The notes under the pieces were generated by a model. It was not told where the DNA came from. It made no database searches and saw only the letters and a list, made by a program, of their open reading frames with translations. A program made the translations under genes and the position numbers. From the IMG/VR virus record IMGVR_UViG_3300025009_000092: 20,000 nucleotides of DNA; one strand, given 5' to 3'. This document shows positions 313 to 20,000 of the stretch, in pieces. Within the stretch, counting starts at the first letter, position 1, and each line of letters opens with the position of its first letter. This DNA comes from an uncultured virus (IMG/VR IMGVR_UViG_3300025009_000092). Taxonomy: Duplodnaviria; Heunggongvirae; Uroviricota; Caudoviricetes.

Positions 313-1701
313 TCACCACGTCCCTACTCGTTTTGTATTAGTCAATTCATCAAAGGCATCGGCAGCCGCATCAACCTGATCCTTGAATTTGCCTTCCGGA
401 AAGTTTTCTGCCTCAAGCAAAAATGCTTCATTCCACGCGCCCTGTACCAGTTTTACATTGCCGGCCTGGGCTTGACTGGCCAATGGGGTGGCCCGGGTCT
501 CTTTCGAGCCTGTAACCGGCAATGTCTTTATTGTATAACCGGCCAATTCTTTGACGAAGGCCTTTGCCTGGCTCTTACCGGCCTGACCAGGATCTTGCGG
601 TAATCGAACCGGCACCAACTTACCATCCTGGCTGGCAATATTCTTGATGGAGTCGATTACTTTACTGGCATCAATTTGAAAACGAGTTGAATCTTCGATG
701 TAATAAACCCCGGCAACCTTGGCCATCCTGATCCCAGCGGTATATGCCGGCCCGCCATCTTTCTTCGCCTTTCGGTCTTCCGGATCTCGATCAGTCCCGG
801 CAAGATCCCATGCTCGAACTCTTTTTGCTCCGGCCGGCACTGCACTCACTATTTCAAAATCAGTCCGCTTGAAATAACTGCCGGCGGTTGGTCGTACATT
901 CCAATTCCCCTCAAGAAGCTGCGCCCGTTCAACCCGGGGGAGAGCGTTCAGTTTTGCAAGATAGGTCGGATCTTTCTGGAGGAGAATCTTATTATCATTG
1001 ATCGTTGAACGGATGAAGGTAAAGGAGAGCGGTTGAACGGGCGCATCAGCGGTACTGTATTTGTCGAGTAATTCTTGTTTTGAATCACCCCATATAACTT
1101 CATCGCCAAGAAGAATAAACCAGCGAATTACACCTGATCTACTGGCAATAACAAAACCATCTGGACCAATCCACCAGTCAATGAACTTCCGGACCCATGA
1201 ATCAGGATCAGGATTGCAGGTTCCTCGGATTCGGCCAGGGACACCAGACATGGACCGGTTCCGGGAAAGCATATACGAAAACTGCTTCCAGGTAAAGTGG
1301 CATATCTCATCAAAACCAATCAACGGGATCTGCGACCCTTGCCAGTCCAAGCGATTCTTCTCGTGCTCCATATGGGCAAAACTAATTGCCATCTTGGAGG
1401 GGAATCGGAAACACAATTCATTCTGATTCGGTTTGCCACCAATGGCCGGATACAACTCCGAGGCTTCATCCCACAACCCACCTTCTGAAGTAATCTGTTT
1501 GGTGGTCCGGCGGAAAATGACCGCACCGAATTTGGAATTGTTTACGTGATATAAGGGTTCCAGCAGAAGGGCGAATGATTTTCCCCCTCCGGCCGAACCA
1601 CCATAAAAAACAACATCTGCCCAACACGCAAGAAACTGAGTCTGCGGCCCCTCCTGGGGTTTTATCTCAATTACTTCTTGTTGAGGCATTGCTGCTGTCA
1701 T
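313..1701 (-). CDS. terL: Terminase large subunit
   Basis: PQEGPQ adenine-binding motif, Walker A GGSAGGGKS, Walker B IGFDE, TCNP coupling motif, C-terminal RNase H-like nuclease motifs RAWDLA and KDQVDA. Confidence 0.95.
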   Translation of the reverse strand: MTAAMPQQEVIEIKPQEGPQTQFLACWADVVFYGGSAGGGKSFALLLEPLYHVNNSKFGAVIFRRTTKQITSEGGLWDEASELYPAIGGKPNQNELCFRFPSKMAISFAHMEHEKNRLDWQGSQIPLIGFDEICHFTWKQFSYMLSRNRSMSGVPGRIRGTCNPDPDSWVRKFIDWWIGPDGFVIASRSGVIRWFILLGDEVIWGDSKQELLDKYSTADAPVQPLSFTFIRSTINDNKILLQKDPTYLAKLNALPRVERAQLLEGNWNVRPTAGSYFKRTDFEIVSAVPAGAKRVRAWDLAGTDRDPEDRKAKKDGGPAYTAGIRMAKVAGVYYIEDSTRFQIDASKVIDSIKNIASQDGKLVPVRLPQDPGQAGKSQAKAFVKELAGYTIKTLPVTGSKETRATPLASQAQAGNVKLVQGAWNEAFLLEAENFPEGKFKDQVDAAADAFDELTNTKRVGTW

Positions 1702-7798: not shown

Positions 7799-7804
7799 TA
7801 AAAT

Positions 7805-8155
7805 ATGAAACTTATAATAGCTGGAAGCAGAACAATTACCGATATAAAATGGATCAGAAAGGCAATCCATAAAAACAATATTTCCATAGATAATATTGAA
7901 CAAATTGTAAGTGGAGGAGCGCGAGGTGTCGATTTATTAGGAGAAAAATTCGCTAATAAATTTTCAATCCCCGTAAAAAGATTTCCTGCAAACTGGATAA
8001 GATATGGAAATTCTGCTGGATATATAAGGAACTCAGAAATGGCAAAATATGCAGATTGTCTGCTTGCTATCTGGGATGGCCAATCAAACGGAACAAAACA
8101 TATGATAAATCTGATGAAAAAAGAAAACAAAACAGTTTTCATTTATATCCCATGA
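7805..8155 (+). CDS. SLOG-superfamily protein (YspA/DUF2493-like)
   Basis: KLIIAGSR, IVSGGARGVD, FPANW..YG.SAG.IRN.EM, AIWDG.S.GT.HMI; AT-rich. Confidence 0.88.
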   Translation: MKLIIAGSRTITDIKWIRKAIHKNNISIDNIEQIVSGGARGVDLLGEKFANKFSIPVKRFPANWIRYGNSAGYIRNSEMAKYADCLLAIWDGQSNGTKHMINLMKKENKTVFIYIP

Positions 8156-9093
8156 TTGATATCATCAAACTATACCGAGACTTCAATATTGAATATCGGG
8201 ATCATGGGCACAAGCATTGCCGCGCTGGTTGGGTGCAGATTGAGTGTCCACTATGTAATGGTAATGCGGGCTTCCATCTCGGTTATTGTATTGATTCTCG
8301 GAGTAAGTTTGCCGGCGCTTTTGTCTGCTGGCGTTGTGGTGGTCACCAATCGGCCAAAGTCCTGAAAGAAATCCTGCAGAAACCCATCACGCAAATTAAA
8401 GAGATACTTCGCCAGTACCGCCTTTCAGGCGGGTCCGGCCCATCTATAGACGCCCAGATTAAACTCATCAAGTCCAGCTTCAAGTACCCCTCTGGTACCG
8501 GCCCTCTGCAAGAACATCATCGGAAATATCTCCAGAAACGCAAATTTGACCCAGATTATATTGAAAAGGAATGGGGGATTCTTGGGACCGGACCTATTTC
8601 CTCCCTATCAATTGGAAGAGGGAAAGAACAGAAAATCATTGATTACAGTAACCGGATCATCATACCAATTGAATGGGATGATAAAGTAGTTTCTTTCCAG
8701 GGCAGACATATTACCGAACGACACAAAATGAAATACCTGGCCTGCCCGGAGGAACGGGAAATCATCAATCTCAAGACAATCTGTTATGGCCGGTCAGATG
8801 GGAAGCGAGCGGTTATTGTCGAGGGGGTGACGGATGTCTGGCGGTTGGGATTTGGTGCTTTGTCTTTATTTGGCATAAAATATACCCTGGCACAAGTGAA
8901 ATTATTGAGTAAGTTTGAAATGCTTTTTATACTTTTTGATCCAGAAGATCAGGCCCAGGAGCAGGCCAGAAAACTGGAAGCAGCGTTAAATTTTCGTGGA
9001 GTCAAAACCAAGATTCTGGATGGATTTAGAACAGATCCAGGCAAGATGAAGCAGGTAGATGCTAATCATTTGATGGAGGATTTGGGATTATGA
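8152..9093 (+). CDS. DNA primase (Zn-binding domain plus TOPRIM)
   Basis: CPLC...CWRC zinc motif, RIIIPI...VVSFQGR, VIVEGVTD, LFD.E; start at ATG 8152 (ATGA coupling). Confidence 0.88.
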   Translation: MIDIIKLYRDFNIEYRDHGHKHCRAGWVQIECPLCNGNAGFHLGYCIDSRSKFAGAFVCWRCGGHQSAKVLKEILQKPITQIKEILRQYRLSGGSGPSIDAQIKLIKSSFKYPSGTGPLQEHHRKYLQKRKFDPDYIEKEWGILGTGPISSLSIGRGKEQKIIDYSNRIIIPIEWDDKVVSFQGRHITERHKMKYLACPEEREIINLKTICYGRSDGKRAVIVEGVTDVWRLGFGALSLFGIKYTLAQVKLLSKFEMLFILFDPEDQAQEQARKLEAALNFRGVKTKILDGFRTDPGKMKQVDANHLMEDLGL

Positions 9094-12049: not shown

Positions 12050-12262
12050 ATGAACGTAAATACGAATCATTTAGTGAATGTTGAATATGATGCTCCAGCA
12101 CCAGAAGGATATGATTTATTGCCAGGAGGATTGAATCGTGCTGCCCGGAGGAAATTGGGCAAAGATAATAGTGCTTATGTCAGCAAAACCTCCGGTGGAA
12201 AATTATCTCGATGGGCAGCTAAACAAAGAAAAATCAAAAATGGAATAAACAAGAAATCATGA
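12050..12262 (+). CDS. Hypothetical basic protein (70 aa)
   Basis: Coupled to neighbours on both sides; LNRAARRKL basic motif. Confidence 0.7.
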   Translation: MNVNTNHLVNVEYDAPAPEGYDLLPGGLNRAARRKLGKDNSAYVSKTSGGKLSRWAAKQRKIKNGINKKS

Positions 12263-12705
12263 AAATCTGTTCTGATAAATGCCCATTAGATGATTGTTGT
12301 GAAGGGGCTTGTTTTCATCCGGAGATGAGGATCGATGCCCCTGGTGAAATTGGAATGAATACCCCTGAACCTCCACCAATCAAAAATAATCATCCAGCCG
12401 TCTGGGATCTGGTTCAAAAGGACATGGAAGAACGGGATGAGATTGGTAAGCAGAAGTATAATACCCGGCTGCAGCCTTTCAATGGCCGAGATCCTCTGGT
12501 GGATGCATATCAGGAAGTTCTGGATTTGGCGGTATATTTGCGCCAGGCTATTTATGAGCGGGACTACCCAAAATGTATGGTTTGCGGGAAACCAGCAACA
12601 AACTTTAGCAGGGATGTTCGAGAACTCCCGCCGGATGAAAGCGGATTTAAAACTATTGTTCCGGGTTTAATAAACGCCGGTTGTAATGATCATCCTGTTG
12701 ATTAA
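12259..12705 (+). CDS. Putative all-alpha NTP pyrophosphatase (MazG-like fold) with Cys-rich termini
   Basis: Core R...G..KY.T.L...NGRD.L.DAYQE.LD..VYL.Q resembles phage nucleotide-modification-associated helical PPases; the activity is inferred. Confidence 0.55.
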   Translation: MKICSDKCPLDDCCEGACFHPEMRIDAPGEIGMNTPEPPPIKNNHPAVWDLVQKDMEERDEIGKQKYNTRLQPFNGRDPLVDAYQEVLDLAVYLRQAIYERDYPKCMVCGKPATNFSRDVRELPPDESGFKTIVPGLINAGCNDHPVD

Positions 12706-12719
12706 AAAAAGGGAAAGCC

Positions 12720-13589
12720 ATGAAAATAATCAAACCAAGCGTTCAGTTTTTCGGAACAGTACCGACAGAATACAATGCCGCCCTCAAGTTCATTGAGATG
12801 GCCGGCAGAACTTGTTATAAGTCAGAAGACAAGATCACTGAAGATAGCGCAGAAGGATTTGTTAAGAAATTGATCAAGGCTGGGCATCTGGCTATGGTTG
12901 AACATTCGAATTTTGTAGTGAAAATACGTAATGTTGAGTGCGATTGGGAATCAATAGACTTACCAAATAAATATCTCAATGGCCTTGAAGATACGGTGAC
13001 CGATTGCGCTTATGTTGGTGGTAATTTGACCGCTTGGTTCAATGCTGTAACTTTAGAAGGCTTCTCCCCAATATTTGACCCATTCTGCGAATTATATGAT
13101 GAATTATTCAACTTAGGTTTTACCGAAGGCGGCACTGATCATTGGCAACCCTGCCCTCACGACGAAATTCCCAAAGAACTCCACAGATACAGTGCCAAGA
13201 TCATCTGTGATCGCGGAGTCAGTCATGAGTTGGTGCGTCACCGACCTTGTTCTTTTGCACAAGAAAGTACTAGGTATGTGAATTACGGCGGCAAGGATAT
13301 GGAATTTATTGAGCCGGCTTACCCTAGTGAGTGGAATTTTTCTGCATACAGAGCTTTTGATAGAGTCTGTAAAGATGCAGAATACTACTACAACTTGCTA
13401 CTTGATAATGGTCTCAACCCACAACAAGCCCGAGCAGTCCTGCCTAATGCTCTTAAGACCGAGATTGTGGTTACGGCCGATGCAGCCGAGTGGTCACATA
13501 TCAGAAAGCTACGAACAGCTAAGTCGGCTCATCCTGATATGCAGCGAGTTATGAACATGATGCCTTGGGAGGAGTTTTTGAATGATTGA
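12720..13589 (+). CDS. thyX: Flavin-dependent thymidylate synthase
   Basis: AGRTCY.S, GH...EH, RGVSHELVRHR..SFAQESTRY, ARAVLPNA, LR....AHP. Confidence 0.95.
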   Translation: MKIIKPSVQFFGTVPTEYNAALKFIEMAGRTCYKSEDKITEDSAEGFVKKLIKAGHLAMVEHSNFVVKIRNVECDWESIDLPNKYLNGLEDTVTDCAYVGGNLTAWFNAVTLEGFSPIFDPFCELYDELFNLGFTEGGTDHWQPCPHDEIPKELHRYSAKIICDRGVSHELVRHRPCSFAQESTRYVNYGGKDMEFIEPAYPSEWNFSAYRAFDRVCKDAEYYYNLLLDNGLNPQQARAVLPNALKTEIVVTADAAEWSHIRKLRTAKSAHPDMQRVMNMMPWEEFLND

Positions 13590-14199
13590 TCTGAAACAGA
13601 AAGAACTAAAGGAATGGCAAGAGCGAAACTTTCCCCGCTCCCGATATGAAGCAATGACCAAGGACCAACTTATTGATATGATCCTTGCCATGCAGTTTAC
13701 CCTTGGAATGGCCGAAGAGGTTGGTGAAGTAGCGTACCATATCCTGAAAGGAATCCAGGCAATCAGGGGCGGGATTAATGGGTTCAATATTAATCAGATT
13801 GCCGATGGAGTAGTCGATTCTGGGGTATTTGGTCAGCAACTTCTTTCGCACTTTGGTGTTGATTCAGAAAAAGAAACTTCCAAGGTTATCGATGAAGTGT
13901 TGAAGCGGGATTGGAAAGAAGATCCGAGCGGGGGAAATATGGGGGTGCCAATTCAACAAATTTCAAATGATAAATTGGTCGAAGTTTGTGATAAATGCTC
14001 CAGGGCTTGTTGTTGGTATGGGGAGTTTATGTGCGATGATGCGTATGGCGCTGGGACTAAAATATTAGCCATTTCTGAATTAAAAAAACTGGAGAATGAA
14101 AATGAACATTATTGGTCGGATGAATATATGATCAAAATATTTGGTGAGCCGGCTCCGTTTGGATACAAGAAGGAAATGACCCGGCGTATTCCGGTTTGA
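13582..14199 (+). CDS. MazG-like nucleotide pyrophosphohydrolase with a C-terminal Cys-rich domain
   Basis: W..RNF...LGMAEEVGEVA...IADGVVD...V..RDW (MazG EExxE...D pattern); the tail has CDKC.RACC...MC. Confidence 0.75.
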   Translation: MIDLKQKELKEWQERNFPRSRYEAMTKDQLIDMILAMQFTLGMAEEVGEVAYHILKGIQAIRGGINGFNINQIADGVVDSGVFGQQLLSHFGVDSEKETSKVIDEVLKRDWKEDPSGGNMGVPIQQISNDKLVEVCDKCSRACCWYGEFMCDDAYGAGTKILAISELKKLENENEHYWSDEYMIKIFGEPAPFGYKKEMTRRIPV

Positions 14200-14202
14200 T
14201 TA

Positions 14203-15735
14203 ATGAGTTCCCAATTCATCGAACGCCGCATTGCCATCGGCCTCATTACCAACGACCAATACCTGCGGGAAATAGCCCCCGTATTTAATGCCGATCTCCT
14301 CAAGGATGAAGCGGCAAAAAAGATTGCCTCCTGGTGCATCCGCTATTTCAATAAGCACGGAAAAGCACCCCTGGAAGATATCGGGATCATCTTCGAATCA
14401 TATACCAGGAGGGGGAAACTCAATCAGGAAGAATCGGAGGATATTGGTAGCATCCTTGACGACCTCAGTGATGAATATCAAACCCAGGCCGAGAACAACC
14501 CGGAGGTCCTGATTGACGAAACTTTCGCATACTTCGATGAAAACAGGCTAGTTCGCCTGGCGGATGATATCAAGGCCGAGGCCCAGCGGGGGAACCTGTT
14601 AGAGGCCAATGTACTGCTTGCTACTAATAAGCAAATTCAACGGGCGGTAAATATAAACCATGACTTCTTCGCCGATGATATTACCAGGACGCAAAAAATA
14701 TTTGAAGACATCCAGGAGCCAATTGTCGAATACCCTGGTAAGCTCGGGCAACTCTGGAACCGGCATTTCGTTCGTGGAGGTTTTGTTGGATTACTCGGCC
14801 CTGAAAAAACTGGAAAAACATGGTGGCTGGCAGACATTGGATTCCAGGCCCAACGAACCGGTAAAAAAGTAGCCTTCTTTGCGGCCGGGGATATGAACCG
14901 GGAGGAAATGGAACTCCGGAAATATATCTATATGGCCAGGAAATCCAACGAACTTGAATATTGCGGGCAATTGATGATCCCGGTGGTTGATTGTTTCTGG
15001 AATCAGAATGGTCAATGTCCGGCTGGTTGCGGTGAATCGCCAATCCGGGGAGATAAACCACCGGCCTTCAAGGATCTCCAACAAGTTTATAGCGATGCTT
15101 TTGAACAATATGGAAGTGACCATACCCCATGCACCAAATGCCAGGGCAAAAAAGAATTCCTAGGTGCCCCATGGTTCAAGCTCCGAGATAAAATAGTCCC
15201 CCTGAACTGGAAAGAGGCATATAATATTGAGCGAAAATTCCAAAAACGATTTCGTGGGGCTGGTTGGAACTTTGCCGATTATCCGGCTTATACCCTCAGT
15301 CCGAAAATGATTGATAATCAATTGGCCATCTGGCACGAAGGCGGCTTTACAGCCGATGTTGTGTTGATTGATTATCCGGATATCATGGCCCCAGACCTGG
15401 AAGACCAGCGAATGGATTTCCGGCAGAAAGAGAATATGAAGTGGTTGAAGATCCGGGCGTTGGCCCATAAGTGGCATTGCCTCGTTGTTTGCCCTACACA
15501 AGCCGATGGAGCCAGTTATGGCAAGGACTGGCTGGATCTCTCCAACTACAGCGAGGATAAGCGAAAGTACAGCCATACAACGGCCTTCTTTGGTCTCAAT
15601 CAAACCGATGGGGAAGCCGAGTTGGGGCTATTCAGGATTAATCAATTAATTGTTCGAAGTGGAAAGCGAGGAAAGAAGTATGCAACTATTTGCCAGCGGC
15701 TCGAAATGGGTCGGCCATTTCTAGGATCATATTAA
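14203..15735 (+). CDS. DnaB-like (SF4) replicative helicase with a Cys-rich insert
   Basis: Helical N-terminal domain (IERRIAIGLITNDQYL), Walker A GPEKTGKT, VLIDYPD (Walker B), VVCPTQ, late Arg motif IVRSG. Confidence 0.8.
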   Translation: MSSQFIERRIAIGLITNDQYLREIAPVFNADLLKDEAAKKIASWCIRYFNKHGKAPLEDIGIIFESYTRRGKLNQEESEDIGSILDDLSDEYQTQAENNPEVLIDETFAYFDENRLVRLADDIKAEAQRGNLLEANVLLATNKQIQRAVNINHDFFADDITRTQKIFEDIQEPIVEYPGKLGQLWNRHFVRGGFVGLLGPEKTGKTWWLADIGFQAQRTGKKVAFFAAGDMNREEMELRKYIYMARKSNELEYCGQLMIPVVDCFWNQNGQCPAGCGESPIRGDKPPAFKDLQQVYSDAFEQYGSDHTPCTKCQGKKEFLGAPWFKLRDKIVPLNWKEAYNIERKFQKRFRGAGWNFADYPAYTLSPKMIDNQLAIWHEGGFTADVVLIDYPDIMAPDLEDQRMDFRQKENMKWLKIRALAHKWHCLVVCPTQADGASYGKDWLDLSNYSEDKRKYSHTTAFFGLNQTDGEAELGLFRINQLIVRSGKRGKKYATICQRLEMGRPFLGSY

Positions 15736-15746
15736 AAGGAGAGGAT

Positions 15747-16121
15747 ATGTCAATCACAGTAACCAAGAAGTTTAGTTTTTGTTATGCTCACCACTTGCCG
15801 GAGTATGATGGAGACTGCTCCCGTGTTCATGGCCACAATAGTGCCGTTGAGGTCGAATTCACCAATGAGTATGGTCAGCTGCCAAGACCATATCCGGGCA
15901 TGGTAGTCGACTTCAAGGATATCAAGAAAATTGTCGGGCCGATTATTGATCAGCTTGATCATCGGTATTTGAATGATATTCTTGACCCCTTTAATCCCAC
16001 CGCCGAGACCATTGCAAATTGGATTGCCGGCCGGATAATGGAGACCCCACTTGGTCCGGGATTGATCAGGGTGCAGGTTTCGGAAACTGACGATTCTTTT
16101 GCCACCTGGAGAAAAGCATGA
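15747..16121 (+). CDS. queD: 6-carboxy-5,6,7,8-tetrahydropterin synthase
   Basis: FCYAHHL, CSRVHGHN, MVVDF, LDHRYLN, PTAE, VSET; AAGGAG RBS with ATG 15747. Confidence 0.95.
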   Translation: MSITVTKKFSFCYAHHLPEYDGDCSRVHGHNSAVEVEFTNEYGQLPRPYPGMVVDFKDIKKIVGPIIDQLDHRYLNDILDPFNPTAETIANWIAGRIMETPLGPGLIRVQVSETDDSFATWRKA

Positions 16122-16774
16122 AAACGAAGATTAATATCATGTCAATTTTCTTTTCAATCTCCGGAGAGGTCAATATCTGGCCGCAAGGAGCCCCGACCAT
16201 ATTCATTCGTTTTGCTGGTTGCAATTTGGCTTGCCACTATTGCGATACCAAACAATCAATCAATGCTGCCGGTACCCAGATGACTGTCGAAGAAATAGTC
16301 GAGCAGGTCAAATCTTTTGATTGTCAGCGGGTTTTGATCACCGGCGGGGAACCCCTATTACAAAAGAATGGTCTACAGGCATTAATCAGAGAACTTGATA
16401 TCCAGGGATATGTGACTAGTGTTGAAACAAATGGATCTCTTCCCCTGGATATCCTTCCTGAGCATCCGGATTGCTGGGTGGTCGATATCAAGATGCCGGG
16501 GAGTGGATATTTTGATTCTATGATCCTGCCGGAAAAACACCTGGAAGATGCCGAAGTCTGGGATAATTTGATTTTCAAATTCCCAATTGAGAATGAACGA
16601 GACTTCCAAACCGCGGCCGATATTATAAAGGATCTGAGCGAACACGCGGCCGGATTCGCTCTTTCCCCGATTTCCCCCTTGACTGCAATTGAATTATGGG
16701 GATGGATGGTCAGAGCCGGATTGACTCATTGTATCCTAAATACCCAGATTCATAAGTTTTTAAAATTAGAATAG
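16118..16774 (+). CDS. queE: 7-carboxy-7-deazaguanine synthase (radical SAM)
   Basis: IFFSISGE, FIRFAGCNLACHYCDT (CX3CX2C), ITGGEP, VETNG, QIHK. Confidence 0.95.
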   Translation: MKTKINIMSIFFSISGEVNIWPQGAPTIFIRFAGCNLACHYCDTKQSINAAGTQMTVEEIVEQVKSFDCQRVLITGGEPLLQKNGLQALIRELDIQGYVTSVETNGSLPLDILPEHPDCWVVDIKMPGSGYFDSMILPEKHLEDAEVWDNLIFKFPIENERDFQTAADIIKDLSEHAAGFALSPISPLTAIELWGWMVRAGLTHCILNTQIHKFLKLE

Positions 16775-16802
16775 ACTGCCGGCAGAATTATTTTGCCGGA
16801 AT

Positions 16803-16853
16803 GTAAAATATTTCCGTAGAAAATCATTCGAAAACAGTATAATAGGATAGAAG
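16803..16853 (+). promoter_or_regulatory. Repeated phage promoter-like motif, copy 2
   Basis: GTAAAATA...AGAAAA...GAAAACAGTATAATAGGATAGAAG, matching 11088-11137; preceded by the hairpin CCGGCAGAA/TTTTGCCGG (16779-16799). Confidence 0.75.
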
Positions 16854-16915
16854 ATAAAAATGGTCAGTGTGATCATTTGCCAGGATTTCCAAACCAAGAA
16901 TAAAGGAGAATTGCC

Positions 16916-17719
16916 ATGAGTGAACCCAAACGCCCCGAATTGATTGCTGCCGCAAAGGAATTGAACACCCTGCTGGACCCCGATCCCAAGATCAAGACGG
17001 TCGGCGTAAAGACTGATGAATTGACCAAGGCTATTGTGGTAGCGGCCGGCCTGCTCGATAAGGGGGATTCCCTGACGACCGAAACCCACGCCGTCCTCTG
17101 CGCCCTGGAAGTTGAGTTACCGGAAGGCCTGGTCATTGCCGCTGCCGATGCGGATGATGAAAATGGCGATAATGCCCAGGAAGAGAAAAAGCCCGAGCCG
17201 GCAATTGAGCGGGAAGACCTGGTTGCCCTGATCGAAGAAATGAACAAGGTCATGGATCTGGACCCGGCAATCGAAGCCAGTGAGAAATCAAGCATCGACG
17301 GTCTCAAGAAACTGATCCATGATAATTGCTACGATAAGGGCGAGTGCCAGGTCTTTGATACCGACAAATTCAGCCCCGAAGCATGGGAAACCTTGACGGT
17401 CCTGGGTGTCCGGCCGGTAGTTACCAAGAAGGCCAAGGATAAGCCGGCAAAAGCCGAGAAGGCAGAAAAGCCCGCCAAGGCCGGAAAAGCGGAGAAGGCT
17501 GAGAAGCCGGCAAAGGCCAAGAAAGAGAAAAAGGAAAAATCCCCCGGCACCCCTTCCAATAAGCGGATTGTTTATGACCTCTTTGCGGCCGGCGAGAAGG
17601 ATCAGGCAAAAATGCTGAAAGCCACGAATGATGCTGTATCCGCCACGACCATCAAGATTTGGATCTCCATGTGGGCCAAGGGTAAAAACCTGCCGGCAGG
17701 TATCAAAGCCGCCGAATGA
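16916..17719 (+). CDS. Hypothetical protein: duplicated acidic domain, Lys/Ala-rich (histone H1-like) repeats, small C-terminal domain
   Basis: AAAGGAG RBS; KPAKAEKAEKPAKAGKAEKAEKPAKAKK; two similar N-terminal units. Confidence 0.8.
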   Translation: MSEPKRPELIAAAKELNTLLDPDPKIKTVGVKTDELTKAIVVAAGLLDKGDSLTTETHAVLCALEVELPEGLVIAAADADDENGDNAQEEKKPEPAIEREDLVALIEEMNKVMDLDPAIEASEKSSIDGLKKLIHDNCYDKGECQVFDTDKFSPEAWETLTVLGVRPVVTKKAKDKPAKAEKAEKPAKAGKAEKAEKPAKAKKEKKEKSPGTPSNKRIVYDLFAAGEKDQAKMLKATNDAVSATTIKIWISMWAKGKNLPAGIKAAE

Positions 17720-18123
17720 AACGAATAGCCTTCATAGGTTGTTCAAAGAGGAAGAAAACCTCCCCCTGCCAGGCAAAGGACCTGTATCAGGGGGAGTTGT
17801 TTAAAAAATCTCTTCGTTATTGCCAACAAGAAAAATTCGACGAAATATATATTCTGTCTGCCAAATATGGATTGGTCTTTTTACAAGATATCATCCAGCC
17901 GTACGAAAAAACCCTGAATACATTTACAGAAGACGAAAAGAAAAATTGGTCCGATAAAGTAAAACAACAAATTTTAGAAAAGAATATTTCCGGGGAATTT
18001 TGGTTCTTTTGCGGAAGCAATTACCATAAACATTTTGAAGGTGAAAAACCTTTATTTGGTTTATCCCTTGGATATCAATTAAACTGGTTCAATCAAAAAT
18101 TAAAAAAGGGGTTCAATCTATGA
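17716..18123 (+). CDS. DUF6884-like protein
   Basis: IGCSKRK.....AKDLY.G.LF....Y......YILSAKYGL.....I.PYE.TL; AT-rich; coupled to both neighbours. Confidence 0.75.
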   Translation: MKRIAFIGCSKRKKTSPCQAKDLYQGELFKKSLRYCQQEKFDEIYILSAKYGLVFLQDIIQPYEKTLNTFTEDEKKNWSDKVKQQILEKNISGEFWFFCGSNYHKHFEGEKPLFGLSLGYQLNWFNQKLKKGFNL

Positions 18124-18782
18124 AAATCGTCTTATCGCTATCCGGCGGGATGGATTCCGCCGCCCTGCTCGGGACCCTGCTCGGGACTGGCCATGAAGTT
18201 TTTGCCGTCTCTTTCTTCTATGGTTCCAAGCACAATCAGTATGAATTGGAAGCCGCCCGGAAGCTGACCGAGCATTATGGTATAAAGCGGCAGTCAATGG
18301 ATATCTCCGGGATCTTCGCCGGGTTCAAGTCGGCCCTGCTGAAAGAGGATTCCCGGTCGATCCCGGAAGGTCATTATGAAGACCGTACTATGGTACAAAC
18401 GGTCGTACCTGGGCGGAATATGATCTTCTCGGCTATCCTTGCGGGGTTGGCCCAATCATTCGAGTACGACGCGGTAGCGCTCGGTATCCATGCAGGGGAT
18501 CATACCATCTATCCGGATTGCCGGCCAGTCTTCAAAGAAAGCATGGATCTGGCCATTAAAACCGCTTCTGAGTATTCGGTTTCCTTGTATGCCCCTTTCC
18601 TGGGAATGAGCAAGGGAGATATCGTCAAGGTCGGGATGGAGCACAAAGTTCCTTTTAAATTGACCCGCACCTGTTATAAGGATCAGTCTTTGTCTTGTGG
18701 AAAATGTGGATCATGTACCGAAAGATTGGAAGCATTCGCCGAGAATGGCCTGGTTGATCCGATTCAGTATGCGGTAAAGTAA
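18120..18782 (+). CDS. queC: 7-cyano-7-deazaguanine (preQ0) synthase
   Basis: SLSGGMDS PP-loop, VPGRNMIF, YPDCR, TRTCY...CGKCGSC.ER zinc site. Confidence 0.96.
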   Translation: MKIVLSLSGGMDSAALLGTLLGTGHEVFAVSFFYGSKHNQYELEAARKLTEHYGIKRQSMDISGIFAGFKSALLKEDSRSIPEGHYEDRTMVQTVVPGRNMIFSAILAGLAQSFEYDAVALGIHAGDHTIYPDCRPVFKESMDLAIKTASEYSVSLYAPFLGMSKGDIVKVGMEHKVPFKLTRTCYKDQSLSCGKCGSCTERLEAFAENGLVDPIQYAVK

Positions 18783-18794
18783 ATAGGAGGCTCC

Positions 18795-19679
18795 GTGAAA
18801 AGAATTATTACAAATGAAGAAGTAGAACTTGCTTGCCTGCCAATAATAAAATCAATCCCAAAAGATGAACTAGGGTTTGGTGGGCCGAGTTTTTATGGTG
18901 TGCCGCGCGGAGGAATTGCCCCTGCATATATGCTGGCCGGATTAACCGATGGTTCCGTAGCGGATCATCCTAAAAAAGCCGACTATATTATTGATGACCT
19001 GATTGATTCCGGCAGTACCCGAGATCGATACGCCAAACTCTATCCCGACACTCCATTCATTACTCTTTTTGAAAAAACCGATCCGATGGAATGGCTGGTC
19101 TTCCCCTGGGAAGTTACCGAGCAGGGCCATGACACCTCTGCGGAAGATATCCCATCTCGTTTTTTAGAATTTATCGGAGAGGATTTAAATCGGGATGGAT
19201 TAAAAGAAACTCCAAAACGAATGATTAAAGCCTGGAAAGAAATTTTCAGCGGATATGAACAAAATCCATCTGATGTTATAAAAACTTTCGAATCAGATGG
19301 ATATGATCAAATAGTCCTTTTACGGGATATTGAATTATATTCCATGTGCGAACATCACGCATTACCATTTGTAGGCCGGGCACATGTCGCATATATTCCT
19401 GGAGGCAAGGTTATCGGTATTTCAAAGCTCGCAAGACTGATTGATATCTTTTCCAAAAGATTACAAATTCAAGAAAGAATAGGAGATCAGGTGACCTCAA
19501 TTCTCATGAATGAATTGAATGCCCAGGGAGCCGCCTGCATAATTGAAGCAGATCATTTCTGTATCAGAATGAGGGGCGTCGGAAAGCAGCATTCTACTAT
19601 GGTAACCTCTTCAATGAAAGGCGTATTTTTAACTAAGCCTGAAGCAAGATCCGAGTTATTGAGTTTGATCCGGTCATGA
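18795..19679 (+). CDS. folE: Fusion of a type I (Gpt-like) phosphoribosyltransferase domain and GTP cyclohydrolase I
   Basis: N-terminus: YGVPRGG, IIDDLIDSGST (PRPP loop), WLVFPWE. C-terminus: RDGLKETPKR, SMCEHHALPF.G, GISKLAR, LQIQER, HFCIRMRG. AGGAGG RBS with GTG start. Confidence 0.93.
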   Translation: MKRIITNEEVELACLPIIKSIPKDELGFGGPSFYGVPRGGIAPAYMLAGLTDGSVADHPKKADYIIDDLIDSGSTRDRYAKLYPDTPFITLFEKTDPMEWLVFPWEVTEQGHDTSAEDIPSRFLEFIGEDLNRDGLKETPKRMIKAWKEIFSGYEQNPSDVIKTFESDGYDQIVLLRDIELYSMCEHHALPFVGRAHVAYIPGGKVIGISKLARLIDIFSKRLQIQERIGDQVTSILMNELNAQGAACIIEADHFCIRMRGVGKQHSTMVTSSMKGVFLTKPEARSELLSLIRS

Positions 19680-19851
19680 AAATTTACCTGGCCGGCAATA
19701 CCCCTGATCGAGTAAAAGAAGAAAAGTTATTTCGAAAGAATGGAATTTGCCCCCCCGCAGACTCATGGCTTATCATTATCTCATCTGTGATAAATCGGTA
19801 ATGGAGATGTTTAAATATTTCATCCAAGGTTCCATCCAGAAAAAGAAATGA
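19676..19851 (+). pseudogene. Short MKIYLAG protein, apparently frameshifted at a C7 tract
   Basis: As read it stops at 19801. One extra C at 19750-19756 gives ...CPPRRLMAYHYLICDKSVMEMFKYFIQGSIQKKK*, ending in an ATGA overlap with the next ORF. Confidence 0.6.
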
Positions 19852-20000
19852 AGATTTATTTAGCCGGGGTTCCGGGGGGGGGCAGTCCCGGGTATTGCAA
19901 AAGGGAGATTGAACTGATTGATAAAAATCTATTTAAAACCAGATTACATTCTTTTTATCATCTAAAAATCACGAATAATAGTATAATAAAGCAGAAGAAA
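19848..20000 (+). CDS. Second MKIYLAG paralog, truncated by the window end; possibly related to the N-terminus of DpdA/TGT-like proteins
   Basis: MKIYLAGVPGGGSPGYCKREIELIDKNLFKTRLHSFYHLKITNNSIIKQKK, open to 20000; contains a G9 tract at 19874-19882. Confidence 0.6.
   Translation, partial: MKIYLAGVPGGGSPGYCKREIELIDKNLFKTRLHSFYHLKITNNSIIKQKK

Follow-up and report, generated by a model that had tools for sequence, protein, structure and literature searches.

An open reading frame at 18795..19679 of the window (the whole stretch of DNA analysed, 20,000 nucleotides of an uncultured caudoviricete virus; all features described here lie on the plus strand) encodes a small purine phosphoribosyltransferase (PRT)-like domain fused to GTP cyclohydrolase I (FolE). 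This conserved and unannotated purine-PRT module, attached to FolE or encoded beside it, is an undescribed accessory part of phage 7-deazaguanine systems. There is about an even chance that the N-terminal domain is a catalytically competent, pared-down 6-oxopurine PRT, probably acting on guanine, which would return the base to GMP and GTP for FolE and remove the guanine released by DpdA; this reading is based on sequence comparison and structure models. Work on the 7-deazaguanine modification of phage DNA is active, with interest in the evasion of restriction and CRISPR and in new DNA bases. The published parts list spans FolE to DpdA and the tailoring enzymes, and the PRT module adds one part to it. 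The published systems (FolE, QueD, QueE, QueC or Gat-QueC, and DpdA1-4; Hutinet 2019, Cui 2023) have the same gene set as the present cluster, with FolE treated as a plain GTP cyclohydrolase and the PRT part undescribed in the literature searched. The string 'phosphoribosyl' has 0 occurrences in the main texts of PMC6884629, PMC10516641 and PMC10484667, and no PRT is listed in the supplement of Cui 2023. No mention of a PRT-FolE pairing was found in this phage deazaguanine literature, and other supplements or papers outside open access could contain one.

The fusion is a single uninterrupted frame from a GTG at 18795 to a TGA at 19677-19679, specifying 294 aa with an N-terminus, MKRIITNEEV, that is conserved among homologs. 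A ribosome-binding site, AGGAGG (18784..18789), can be read off the sequence 5 nt 5' of the GTG, and the stop codon of queC (18780-18782) stands just ahead of it, a tight, operon-like spacing. The mini purine PRT domain covers aa 1-106 (18795..19112), a length below that of every characterised Gpt. It is followed by an acidic linker with variable alignment columns (aa 107-120, 19113..19154; pLDDT ~80-88 in the full-length model) and by the FolE domain (aa 121-294, 19155..19676). PF01227 matches aa 121-292 over profile positions 6-178 of 179 (229.5 bits, E 2.4e-68, Pfam), and TIGR00063 is passed with 215 bits against a cut-off of 181.6. The FolE motifs CEHH (aa 185-188, 19347-19358) and H254/C256 (19554-19562) show no variation across 116 homologs; we take C185, E186, H187, H188, H254 and C256 to correspond to the zinc ligands and catalytic motif of the E. 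coli enzyme.

The fusion is confirmed as real and is neither a chance arrangement nor an assembly artefact, since an identical ORF occurs on a separate IMG/VR contig record (L001), fusions of at least 250 aa make up 118 of the 119 homologs listed next, and isolated phages carry it, NP1 and VpKK5 among others, annotated simply as "GTP cyclohydrolase". A functionless domain, either a relic in decay or a product of faulty annotation or assembly, would fit its shortness and its lack of a Pfam match. Such a reading is already contradicted by the conservation data and has next to no probability: besides the independent contig record, at least 118 full-length fusion homologs extend down to about 50% identity with the motif set kept, all fused forms belong to one old clade (support 100/94), and AF2 confidence is high.

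Against Pfam the N-terminal domain gave nothing, PF00156 included, even at E 10, and it scores far under the cut-off of NF006613, the Gpt equivalog (22 bits versus 138). As a single sequence it matches the PDB by phmmer with E 4e-4 across the PRPP motif, and a profile built from 116 fusion homologs matches residues 5-142 of XGPRT with E 6e-8. The profile of the whole N-domain family matches the Pyrococcus horikoshii purine PRT 1vdm (E 2e-17), XGPRT (E 3e-12 to 8e-10) and Sulfolobus GpT-2 (E 1.6e-9). For the AF2 model of the domain (pLDDT 93.8) the best Foldseek match is E. coli XGPRT (TM 0.72-0.77). By sequence profile and fold the domain is a Gpt/XGPRT-family purine phosphoribosyltransferase with predicted activity. 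Its fold is common to the Gpt/XGPRT enzymes of E. coli and Yersinia (1nul, 1a95-1a98, 4jls, 5xtk, 6kp5) and to 1vdm, and the elements follow in the same order: an N-terminal helix, the (S/P)RGG PPi loop, the PRPP motif with its acidic pair and the Asp after it, a Lys after the next strand, and a C-terminal W-x-x-x-P-W-(D/E). Unlike these enzymes, the present domain lacks a hairpin of 22-25 residues, is fused to FolE and stays under the Gpt equivalog cut-off.

The original prediction of a compact Gpt-like PRTase fused in frame to an intact FolE agrees with the ORF, with PF01227 and TIGR00063, and with the profile and fold of the N-terminal domain, and the motifs that it quoted are all found. 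The PPi loop VPRGG (aa 36-40, 18900..18914) aligns with SRGG of XGPRT. Among the fusion homologs 117/118 have G40 and 110/118 have K/R38, and in the best 150 family representatives R/K38, G39 and G40 are each present in 150/150. The PRPP-binding motif IIDDLIDSGST (aa 65-75, 18987..19019, with D67, D68 and D71) aligns with VIDDLVDTGGT of XGPRT; D67, D71, G73 and T75 occur in all 118 fusion homologs and D68 in 117. D71 lines up with the Asp that follows the acidic pair of the XGPRT motif, a residue that in 6-oxopurine PRTs handles N7 of the purine, an atom that deazapurines lack. The base-pocket segment consists of K94 and EWLVFPWE (W100, W105 and E106; 19074..19112, within which WLVFPWE is aa 100-106, 19092-19112); the counterparts of the latter in the alignment are TWIEQPWD in XGPRT and KWIVFPWE in 1vdm. 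K/R94 is found in 110/118 fusion homologs, W100, presumably the purine-stacking Trp as in XGPRT, in 117/118, and W105 and E106 in 118/118; across the best 150 family representatives D/E71 is kept in 148 and W100 in 147. The catalytic residue constellation of the domain is under strong constraint.

One element of the fold is missing. In the stretch that joins the PPi-loop helix to the PRPP motif, XGPRT carries 22 and 1vdm 25 residues more than the N-domain family profile. From RGG to DD there are 29 residues here and about 50 in XGPRT; this spacing is 20-39 residues in 133 of the best 150 family representatives, the other 17 giving no motif match. Judged from these alignments, the flexible-loop hairpin (loop II) is absent throughout the mini-PRT family. 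The fused forms are also shortened ahead of the Trp. In type I PRTs the flexible loop covers the active site on closing and contributes to catalysis; the activity of the N-terminal domain could therefore be low or absent. The earlier assignment to Gpt-like PRTases therefore stands as to family; it had overlooked the loop loss, and activity cannot be assumed.

The loop loss also speaks for a reading in which the domain is no enzyme and binds a ligand in a regulatory or scaffolding role. By binding PRPP, GMP, guanine or an alarmone, it would adjust the activity of FolE, or the assembly of the decamer, to the purine supply, as PRT-fold regulators do. The fusion itself points the same way: GMP is two host kinase steps short of GTP, so covalent attachment to FolE would give no direct channelling, a point that counts against salvage as well, and the full-length AF2 model forms one confident body (pTM 0.81). 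Among the fold neighbours found by Foldseek is the ppGpp-bound PRT-like protein 5vog, and alarmone binding at the active sites of purine salvage PRTs is described in bioRxiv 10.1101/2020.03.04.977603. The residues needed for chemistry are nevertheless nearly invariant (D71, the basic residue of the PPi loop and the acidic pair), and regulation of FolE would make little sense for the standalone majority of ~130 aa, the picocyanobacterial members of which are encoded away from folE. A purely regulatory role is on balance unlikely, and it is the foremost of the alternatives. That the two domains are physically joined suggests something beyond cooperation in metabolism.

The genes around the fusion set the context for salvage. 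A queD gene of the CPH4 synthase family (15690..16121; PF01242, E 1.9e-32) is followed by queE, a radical SAM gene resembling CDG synthase (16118..16774; PF04055, E 3e-16), whose homologs in related loci are neighbours of both queD and the fusion gene, and by queC for preQ0 synthase (18120..18782; PF06508, E 3.6e-56; TIGR00364, 178 bits, over the cut-off). The full preQ0 set (folE, queD, queE, queC) is thus contained in 15690-19679, in the order queD-queE-queC before folE. Downstream, two short units of the form 'MKIYLAG...RL(L/M/H)(S/A)(Y/F)' (19676..20000) resemble the N-terminal module of DpdA. The start of dpdA lies ~20 nt past the window end on the same contig (L001 10262/10403-11293). 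Its product contains the motif FLDSGAFS and has 45% identity (E 9e-67) to a gene of phage NP1 annotated 'queuine tRNA-ribosyltransferase'; the match to the NCBIfam DpdA model is weak (E 1.3e-5, 24 bits versus a cut-off of 200), and the Pfam TGT model (PF01702) fails to detect these phage DpdAs. The layout of folE followed by dpdA, clamp and polymerase is that of the Queuovirinae (NP1, iggy, CAjan, 9g). The host of the fusion gene is, as read from its genes alone, a phage Dpd-type 7-deazaguanine DNA modification cluster.

PRT and FolE are fused in 44 of 78 IMG/VR loci. In others folE is directly followed by prt, for example in L051-L058 and in Brevundimonas phage MaInes, or prt directly precedes folE, as in Flavobacterium phage immuto_2-6A, or the order is folE-queD-prt-queE (L065-L076). 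In MaInes the folE-prt pair has genes for a dNMP kinase and RNR as neighbours, and queCDE and a DpdA3-like gene lie at a distance of 7 kb. FolE is the only partner domain seen: of the 22 family representatives that exceed 170 aa, 11 have FolE and 0 any other partner. Standalone mini-PRTs of ~130 aa are the majority (128/150 best representatives). They are known from marine picocyanobacteria, PHROG 8995 ('phosphoribosyl transferase'), immuto_2-6A gp211 and Cellulophaga phage phiST CGPG_00045, and belong to the same loop-less family, sharing with the fused form RGG, DD-x-x-D/E-(S/T)G-x-T and EW(L/I)V(F/Y)PWE. They differ from it in being separate genes of ~120-180 aa, in which the segment ahead of the Trp is longer, and the cellular ones do not stand beside que genes. 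For locus L055, a complex prediction that paired the split FolE and the standalone PRT next to it had a score of 0.00 (mark, 0.32), a value that weighs neither for nor against contact between them.

The suggestion was that fusion homologs be surveyed for the co-occurrence of dpdA versus polymerase. Counted with our own HMMs, built by iteration on the fetched loci, and with simple ORF calling, both uncurated, DpdA is seen in the fetched stretch of 56 of 71 PRT-bearing viral loci, and of the 15 in which it is not seen, 14 are truncated contigs or stretches. A complete que cluster with a PRT and no DpdA was not encountered among these 71 viral loci; one of the viral loci, L072, has a PRT and no que genes within 10 kb. 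Phage records matching the N-terminal domain number 38, with 0 from Escherichia and Mycobacterium, against 405 records matching the whole fusion protein, mostly via FolE. On these counts the mini-PRT is accessory, and most deazaguanine phages do without a PRT.

In the salvage reading, the N-terminal domain would convert a free purine base and PRPP to GMP (or IMP or XMP), and host guanylate kinase and nucleoside-diphosphate kinase would raise GMP to GTP. GTP would then serve as substrate of the fused FolE in the first step of the FolE-QueD-QueE-QueC route to preQ0. DpdA would exchange preQ0 for guanine in the phage DNA, freeing one guanine per exchange. The PRT would close the loop by returning the expelled guanine to the GTP pool for the next preQ0, and the DpdA product would be cleared. 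A search for guanylate kinase in the nearest record, a 27 kb fragment, gave no hit, which carries no weight either way. We infer the activity of the domain, its guanine substrate and the benefit from GTP supply and guanine removal alike. Such a salvage of guanine to refill GTP was one of two models in the original prediction; it is now favoured by the family assignment, the residue conservation, the link to folE and the co-occurrence with DpdA, and its enzymatic part keeps the standing of an inference from sequence. In 37 fused loci dpdA, queD and queE can all be seen; QueC is present in 18 of these and gives no hit in 19, and the cluster of phage NP1 has Gat-QueC. Since the same fused PRT-FolE serves clusters of all three kinds, guanine or GTP would be their common denominator, and a substrate shared by all of them fits better than a deazapurine that changes between them. 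The missing loop, the failed curated thresholds, the accessory spread, the Dehalococcoidia fusions described below and L072 count against salvage, as does the lack of direct channelling.

The second model had the domain make preQ0 nucleotide for pre-replicative incorporation. In its broader form, a 7-deazapurine PRT would ribosylate preQ0 or CDG for incorporation into DNA at the nucleotide level or for another use. The gene does sit within a base-synthesis module, between queD and queE in one lineage, and DpdA3-type loci have the order folE-prt-PRA-PH/MazG-like-DNA polymerase. It may be speculated that loss of the loop opens the pocket edge near position 7. PRTs also belong to deazapurine nucleoside gene clusters, among them those for toyocamycin and tubercidin, where we take the enzymes to be ToyH and TubC. 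According to bioRxiv 10.64898/2026.04.15.718813, these clusters, like the present one, encode the PRT with homologs of FolE, QueD and QueE (and in some cases QueC); compared by gene content, they differ from it in having no DpdA and in having a GMP reductase, an adenylosuccinate synthase and lyase, and a HAD phosphatase. A Pfam search of the 20 ORFs of the window found no member of these toyocamycin-type partner families. Furthermore, dpdA is directly downstream here and accompanies the PRT in most viral loci, one conserved pocket is kept across QueC-plus, QueC-minus and Gat-QueC clusters, the Asp aligned to the XGPRT position after the acidic pair is invariant, and cellular mini-PRTs exist without que genes. 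Cui et al. 2023 conclude that all known cases are post-replicative. The model is weakened by the downstream dpdA, the DpdA counts and the near-equal presence and absence of QueC, and a deazapurine substrate is distinctly improbable. There is a still slighter chance that the loop-less PRT accepts preQ0 or CDG besides or instead of guanine and opens a nucleotide-level branch alongside DpdA. Possible uses of such a branch are incorporation by the polymerase, storage of the base, or a nucleotide acting on a host target, and the MazG-like pyrophosphohydrolases that are often nearby would, in that case, police the deazaguanine nucleotide pool.

Cellular mini-PRT loci were collected by an alignment search of genome contigs with the N-terminal domain, using EWLVFPWE as sole pattern, and the set is therefore motif-biased. 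It includes 29 picocyanobacterial loci, away from folE and with no que or dpdA genes nearby. In the three picocyanobacterial genomes examined (3/3), no Hpt or Gpt scored above the family cut-off, and in two of them the best Gpt-like match is the mini-PRT itself. In the tree, L068 and L077, split forms from phages, group with Prochlorococcaceae proteins (support 99/91). This branching, and the occurrence of picocyanobacterial mini-PRTs without que or dpdA, indicate that que operons acquired a purine-PRT-like gene of an ordinary cellular kind.

The fusion is also found on six Dehalococcoidia chromosomes, with no que or dpdA within 8 kb. These copies were considered as strong proof of a DpdA-independent role and rejected as such: in the tree they fall within the clade of fused phage forms, their FolE reads CERH instead of CEHH, and their neighbours are a HepT-like gene and large unknown genes.

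If guanine is recycled, the PRT would be a built-in product sink for DpdA and would explain how phages pay for a modification that costs one GTP per modified guanine. It would also show a type I PRT working without the flexible loop, which bears on PRT enzymology and on the picocyanobacterial mini-PRTs. According to Cui 2023, full DNA replacement could not be reconstituted heterologously for DpdA3 systems; such reconstitution might need the mini-PRT gene. FolE genes of Queuovirinae-like phages labelled 'GTP cyclohydrolase' should be re-annotated as bifunctional candidates.

Two further neighbours had been described as MazG-like. For 13582-14199, a search of Pfam at E 10 and a sequence search of the PDB gave no match, and ESM Atlas feature matches (score 0.90) to MazG, dUTPase_2 and PRA-PH clusters make it a lead; for 12259-12705 no MazG support was found, Pfam at E 10 included. 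Within the que cluster lies a DUF6884 gene (17716..18123; PF21818, E 1.8e-34), which is rare, occurring in 2 of the 78 related loci.

The window forms part of a tailed-phage genome and encodes a large terminase (313-1701, minus strand), an SNF2 helicase, a primase, a DnaB-like helicase and ThyX (12720-13589). Its 7-deazaguanine cluster comprises queD (15690-16121), queE (16118-16774), an unknown ORF, a DUF6884 gene (17716-18123; PF21818, E 1.8e-34; also weakly YaaA-like), queC (18120-18782) and the phosphoribosyltransferase (PRT)-FolE fusion ORF (18795-19679), an uninterrupted frame of 294 residues with a GTG start and AGGAGG 5 nt upstream. The DUF6884 gene overlaps the start of queC and is present in only 2 of 78 related loci. 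A 148-aa ORF, ThyX and a 205-aa ORF lie upstream of the helicase (12259-14199). Pfam and PDB sequence searches gave nothing convincing for the 148-aa or the 205-aa ORF; the former has a Cys-rich N-terminus and PHROG matches to the C-terminal part of families of mostly unknown function, and the first 125 residues of the latter resemble MazG/dUTPase_2/PRA-PH pyrophosphohydrolases in ESM Atlas features only (0.90).

The FolE half is complete at residues 121-292, which match positions 6-178 of the 179 in PF01227 at E 2.4e-68. It scores 215 bits against TIGR00063, exceeding the cut-off, and none of 116 homologs departs from its CEHH and H-x-C motifs. Residues 1-106 had no Pfam match, even at E 10, and fall below the Pfam and NCBIfam thresholds. 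As a single sequence this N-domain matched E. coli XGPRT over the PRPP motif (E 4e-4), PHROG 8995 'phosphoribosyl transferase' and NF006613. A profile of 116 fusion homologs aligned positions 3-98 to XGPRT residues 5-142 (E 6e-8), and a profile of 38 viral-locus N-domains matched the P. horikoshii purine PRT 1vdm (E 2e-17), XGPRT (3e-12 to 8e-10) and Sulfolobus GpT-2 (1.6e-9). AF2 models were confident for the whole fusion (pLDDT 93.8, pTM 0.81) and for the N-domain alone (pLDDT 93.8), and the best Foldseek matches of the latter were XGPRT chains (TM 0.72-0.77). Profiles and predicted structures thus clearly place residues 1-106 among the purine PRTs by family.

When aligned with the mini-PRT, XGPRT and 1vdm have 22 and 25 extra residues, respectively, ahead of the PRPP motif and past the helix that follows the PPi loop. 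In type I PRTs this is the position of the flexible loop, which closes the active site. Fused forms also have a shorter stretch ahead of the C-terminal Trp. Judging from the alignments, all other features defining the active site are kept. Among 118 of the 119 listed homologs (all listed matches of at least 250 aa), D67, D71, G73, T75, W105 and E106 are kept in 118/118, D68, G40 and W100 in 117/118, and K/R38 and K/R94 in 110/118. The best 150 of 7987 representatives from an exhaustive profile search, a sample independent of any word pattern, retain R/K38, G39 and G40 in 150/150, D/E71 in 148/150 and W100 in 147/150, and next to no credence is given to the domain being a remnant or an artefact. 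The invariance of EWLVFPWE in the N-domain alignment is inflated, because loci were fetched via peptide patterns that included this one. The loss of the flexible loop is a real reason for doubting PRT activity, and no direct channelling is gained from the fusion to FolE, which counts against a salvage role. Both points speak for a ligand-sensing or scaffolding module, an explanation to which a minor but appreciable share of the probability is assigned. The preferred reading adds to a known pathway an accessory module that is undescribed and probably enzymatic, a predicted PRT.

The fusion protein was used as query to fetch 78 viral loci, many on cut contigs and with uncurated ORF calling; these hold 44 fused genes, 27 separate mini-PRT genes and 7 folE genes with no detectable PRT. 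The separate gene directly follows folE in L051-L058, L060, L062 and L069, lies one gene past it in L063, and occurs in the order folE-queD-prt-queE in L065-L076 and L078. The DpdA3-type loci (L055 9887-13369 and its sisters within L051-L063) have the gene order queC, 2OG-Fe(II) oxygenase, queD, queE, folE, mini-PRT, PRA-PH/MazG-like gene, DNA polymerase B; the mini-PRT is 181 aa long including a C-terminal tail, and the DpdA3-like gene is just upstream of queC. Among isolated phages, NP1 and VpKK5 (Queuovirinae) carry the fusion, labelled 'GTP cyclohydrolase' only, followed by a gene annotated as queuine tRNA-ribosyltransferase, the clamp and the polymerase. Flavobacterium phage immuto_2-6A, for which fdPreQ1 is reported in Cui et al. 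2023, has a gene for a 131-aa 'phosphoribosyl transferase' right before folE. In Brevundimonas phage MaInes the PRT directly follows folE, and this pair adjoins the genes for RNR and for a dNMP kinase; queC-queD-queE and a DpdA3-like gene lie 7 kb away from the pair. The PRT adjoins a QueE-like gene in PA5oct and is near RNR in phiST. In a tree of 59 PRT domains, all 24 phage and 2 Dehalococcoidia fused forms make up one clade (support 100/94), and separate phage PRT genes interleave with cellular ones; in this sample, the fusion arose once, and separate PRT genes entered que operons more than once. The N-domain is dispensable for most deazaguanine phages, since 38 phage records match it versus 405 for the whole fusion protein, the latter mostly via FolE.

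An identical fusion gene is present on the IMG/VR contig L001, which continues 10 kb further and encodes dpdA, a sliding clamp, DnaE interrupted by a Hint/GIY-YIG insertion, and a clamp loader. The dpdA gene corresponding to the window thus lies outside it, at L001 10403-11293; counting an upstream module, it would begin at ATG 10262. The product is 45% identical to that of the NP1 gene (E 9e-67) and contains the FLDSGAFS motif; its NCBIfam DpdA match is weak. A dpdA survey across fusion and PRT loci, proposed in the original prediction, used self-built, uncurated HMMs for DpdA (iterated) and Que. DpdA was found within the fetched stretch of 56 of 71 PRT-bearing viral loci (48 similar to the window's DpdA, 8 to immuto_2-6A DpdA3). 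Seven of the 15 others are fused genes that begin no more than 1.8 kb into the contig or stretch, at the end that holds dpdA in sister loci; seven are split PRTs on short or cut stretches, and one, L072, spans 10 kb on both sides without que genes. No complete PRT-bearing que cluster lacking DpdA occurred among the 71 loci. According to Cui et al. 2023, every virus having 7-deazaguanine synthesis genes encodes DpdA, and modification after replication is proposed for all known cases. These statements and the co-occurrence of DpdA agree in weighing against preQ0 nucleotide synthesis for incorporation before replication, one of two models originally offered.

On L001 (12785-16720) DnaE (Pol III alpha) is encoded by two ORFs with a Hint/intein-like segment and a GIY-YIG/NUMOD3 homing endonuclease gene between them. 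At least five units of about 40-70 codons flank dpdA (window 19676-20000; L001 9922-11830). They start with MKIYLAG or MRIYLA, contain (K/R)RL(L/M/H)(S/A)(Y/F), and recur as the first ~50 residues of full-length DpdA proteins in relatives. Each has a homopolymer or (GA)n tract, in which two need a frameshift to continue; 19874-19882 reads G9 in the window versus G8 in L001. The locus L003, with an 89% identical fusion protein, has conserved the units and one of the frameshifts as well. Possible explanations are decay after duplication, switching of the DpdA N-terminus by slippage, or tract sequencing errors.

Three indirect, comparative arguments favour an ordinary 6-oxopurine as substrate, with guanine as the simplest candidate. 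D71, the Asp after the acidic pair, is invariant and aligned with the corresponding Asp of XGPRT, which acts on purine N7, an atom absent from deazapurines. The 6-oxopurine is favoured because of this invariance and because the family occurs in cells without deazaguanine DNA genes nearby. Fused PRTs with the same pocket residues are found in 18 loci that have QueC, in 19 that gave no QueC match (several with contiguous dpdA-queD-queE-fusion) and in NP1, which has Gat-QueC. Guanine is favoured since the deazapurine would vary among these clusters, to all of which guanine and GTP are common. These same observations make it improbable that the domain is a deazapurine PRT acting like those of the toyocamycin and tubercidin clusters, whose make-up is described in bioRxiv 10.64898/2026.04.15.718813.

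As a 6-oxopurine PRT, the domain would convert guanine (or hypoxanthine/xanthine) and PRPP to GMP (or IMP/XMP). Host kinases would raise GMP to GTP, which the fused FolE would use to open the path to preQ0, and DpdA would put preQ0 in place of guanine, freeing guanine again. The PRT would thereby replenish the precursor pool while clearing the product of DpdA. GTP supply for FolE is weighted above a guanine sink for DpdA because FolE is the tightest genomic partner, most clearly in MaInes; the two are proposed to be parts of one loop. Alarmones target purine salvage PRTs at the PRPP site, in a pocket shaped by loop II, as described for B. subtilis XPRT (bioRxiv 10.1101/2020.03.04.977603). A loop-less phage PRT might escape alarmone control.

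Database records name the fusion gene 'GTP cyclohydrolase', and a few precomputed Pfam strings list PF00156 beside PF01227. Within the set searched, beyond which the literature may differ, no paper combined DpdA, phage and phosphoribosyltransferase. Hutinet 2019, Cui 2023 and the iggy paper do not use the term 'phosphoribosyl' in their main texts, and no PRT appears in one Cui 2023 supplement, from which the other supplements may differ.

The exhaustive profile search returned 7987 clusters at E <=1e-3 and 3237 at E <=1e-10. Standalone proteins of at most 170 aa account for 128 of the best 150 representatives, and 133 have an RGG-to-DD spacing of 20-39 residues, the other 17 having no motif-pattern match; the loop-less mini-PRTs thus make up a large family in their own right, with the fusion as one branch. 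The 22 representatives longer than 170 aa comprise 11 with FolE, 9 with the PRT domain only and 2 with nothing, and none has a fusion partner other than FolE. P0126 and P0127 are tandem double mini-PRTs of about 255-277 aa, in whose second copy the acidic pair is gone along with other motif residues. To our knowledge, cellular mini-PRTs are uncharacterised as well. Prochlorococcus and Synechococcus relatives, which encode standalone mini-PRTs of about 130 aa, make up 29 of 42 genome loci found by the EWLVFPWE pattern (L083, L088-L098, L100-L108, L110-L115, L119-L121). None has que or dpdA within 8 kb, and one has folE 2.5 kb away. No Hpt or Gpt scored above the curated cut-off in the three picocyanobacterial genomes checked, in two of which the mini-PRT itself was the best Gpt-like match. 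In Synechococcus L092 its gene overlaps a nucleoside 2-deoxyribosyltransferase-family gene. Six Dehalococcoidia chromosomes (L082, L084-L087, L090; match at about 7800-8825) encode PRT-FolE-like fusions, about 300-340 aa long, and have neither que nor dpdA genes within 8 kb of them. CERH replaces the CEHH zinc/catalytic motif in these fusions, which for this reason, and because they are nested in the phage clade, look acquired and altered. The L082 fusion adjoins a HepT-like gene and a TauD-family dioxygenase.
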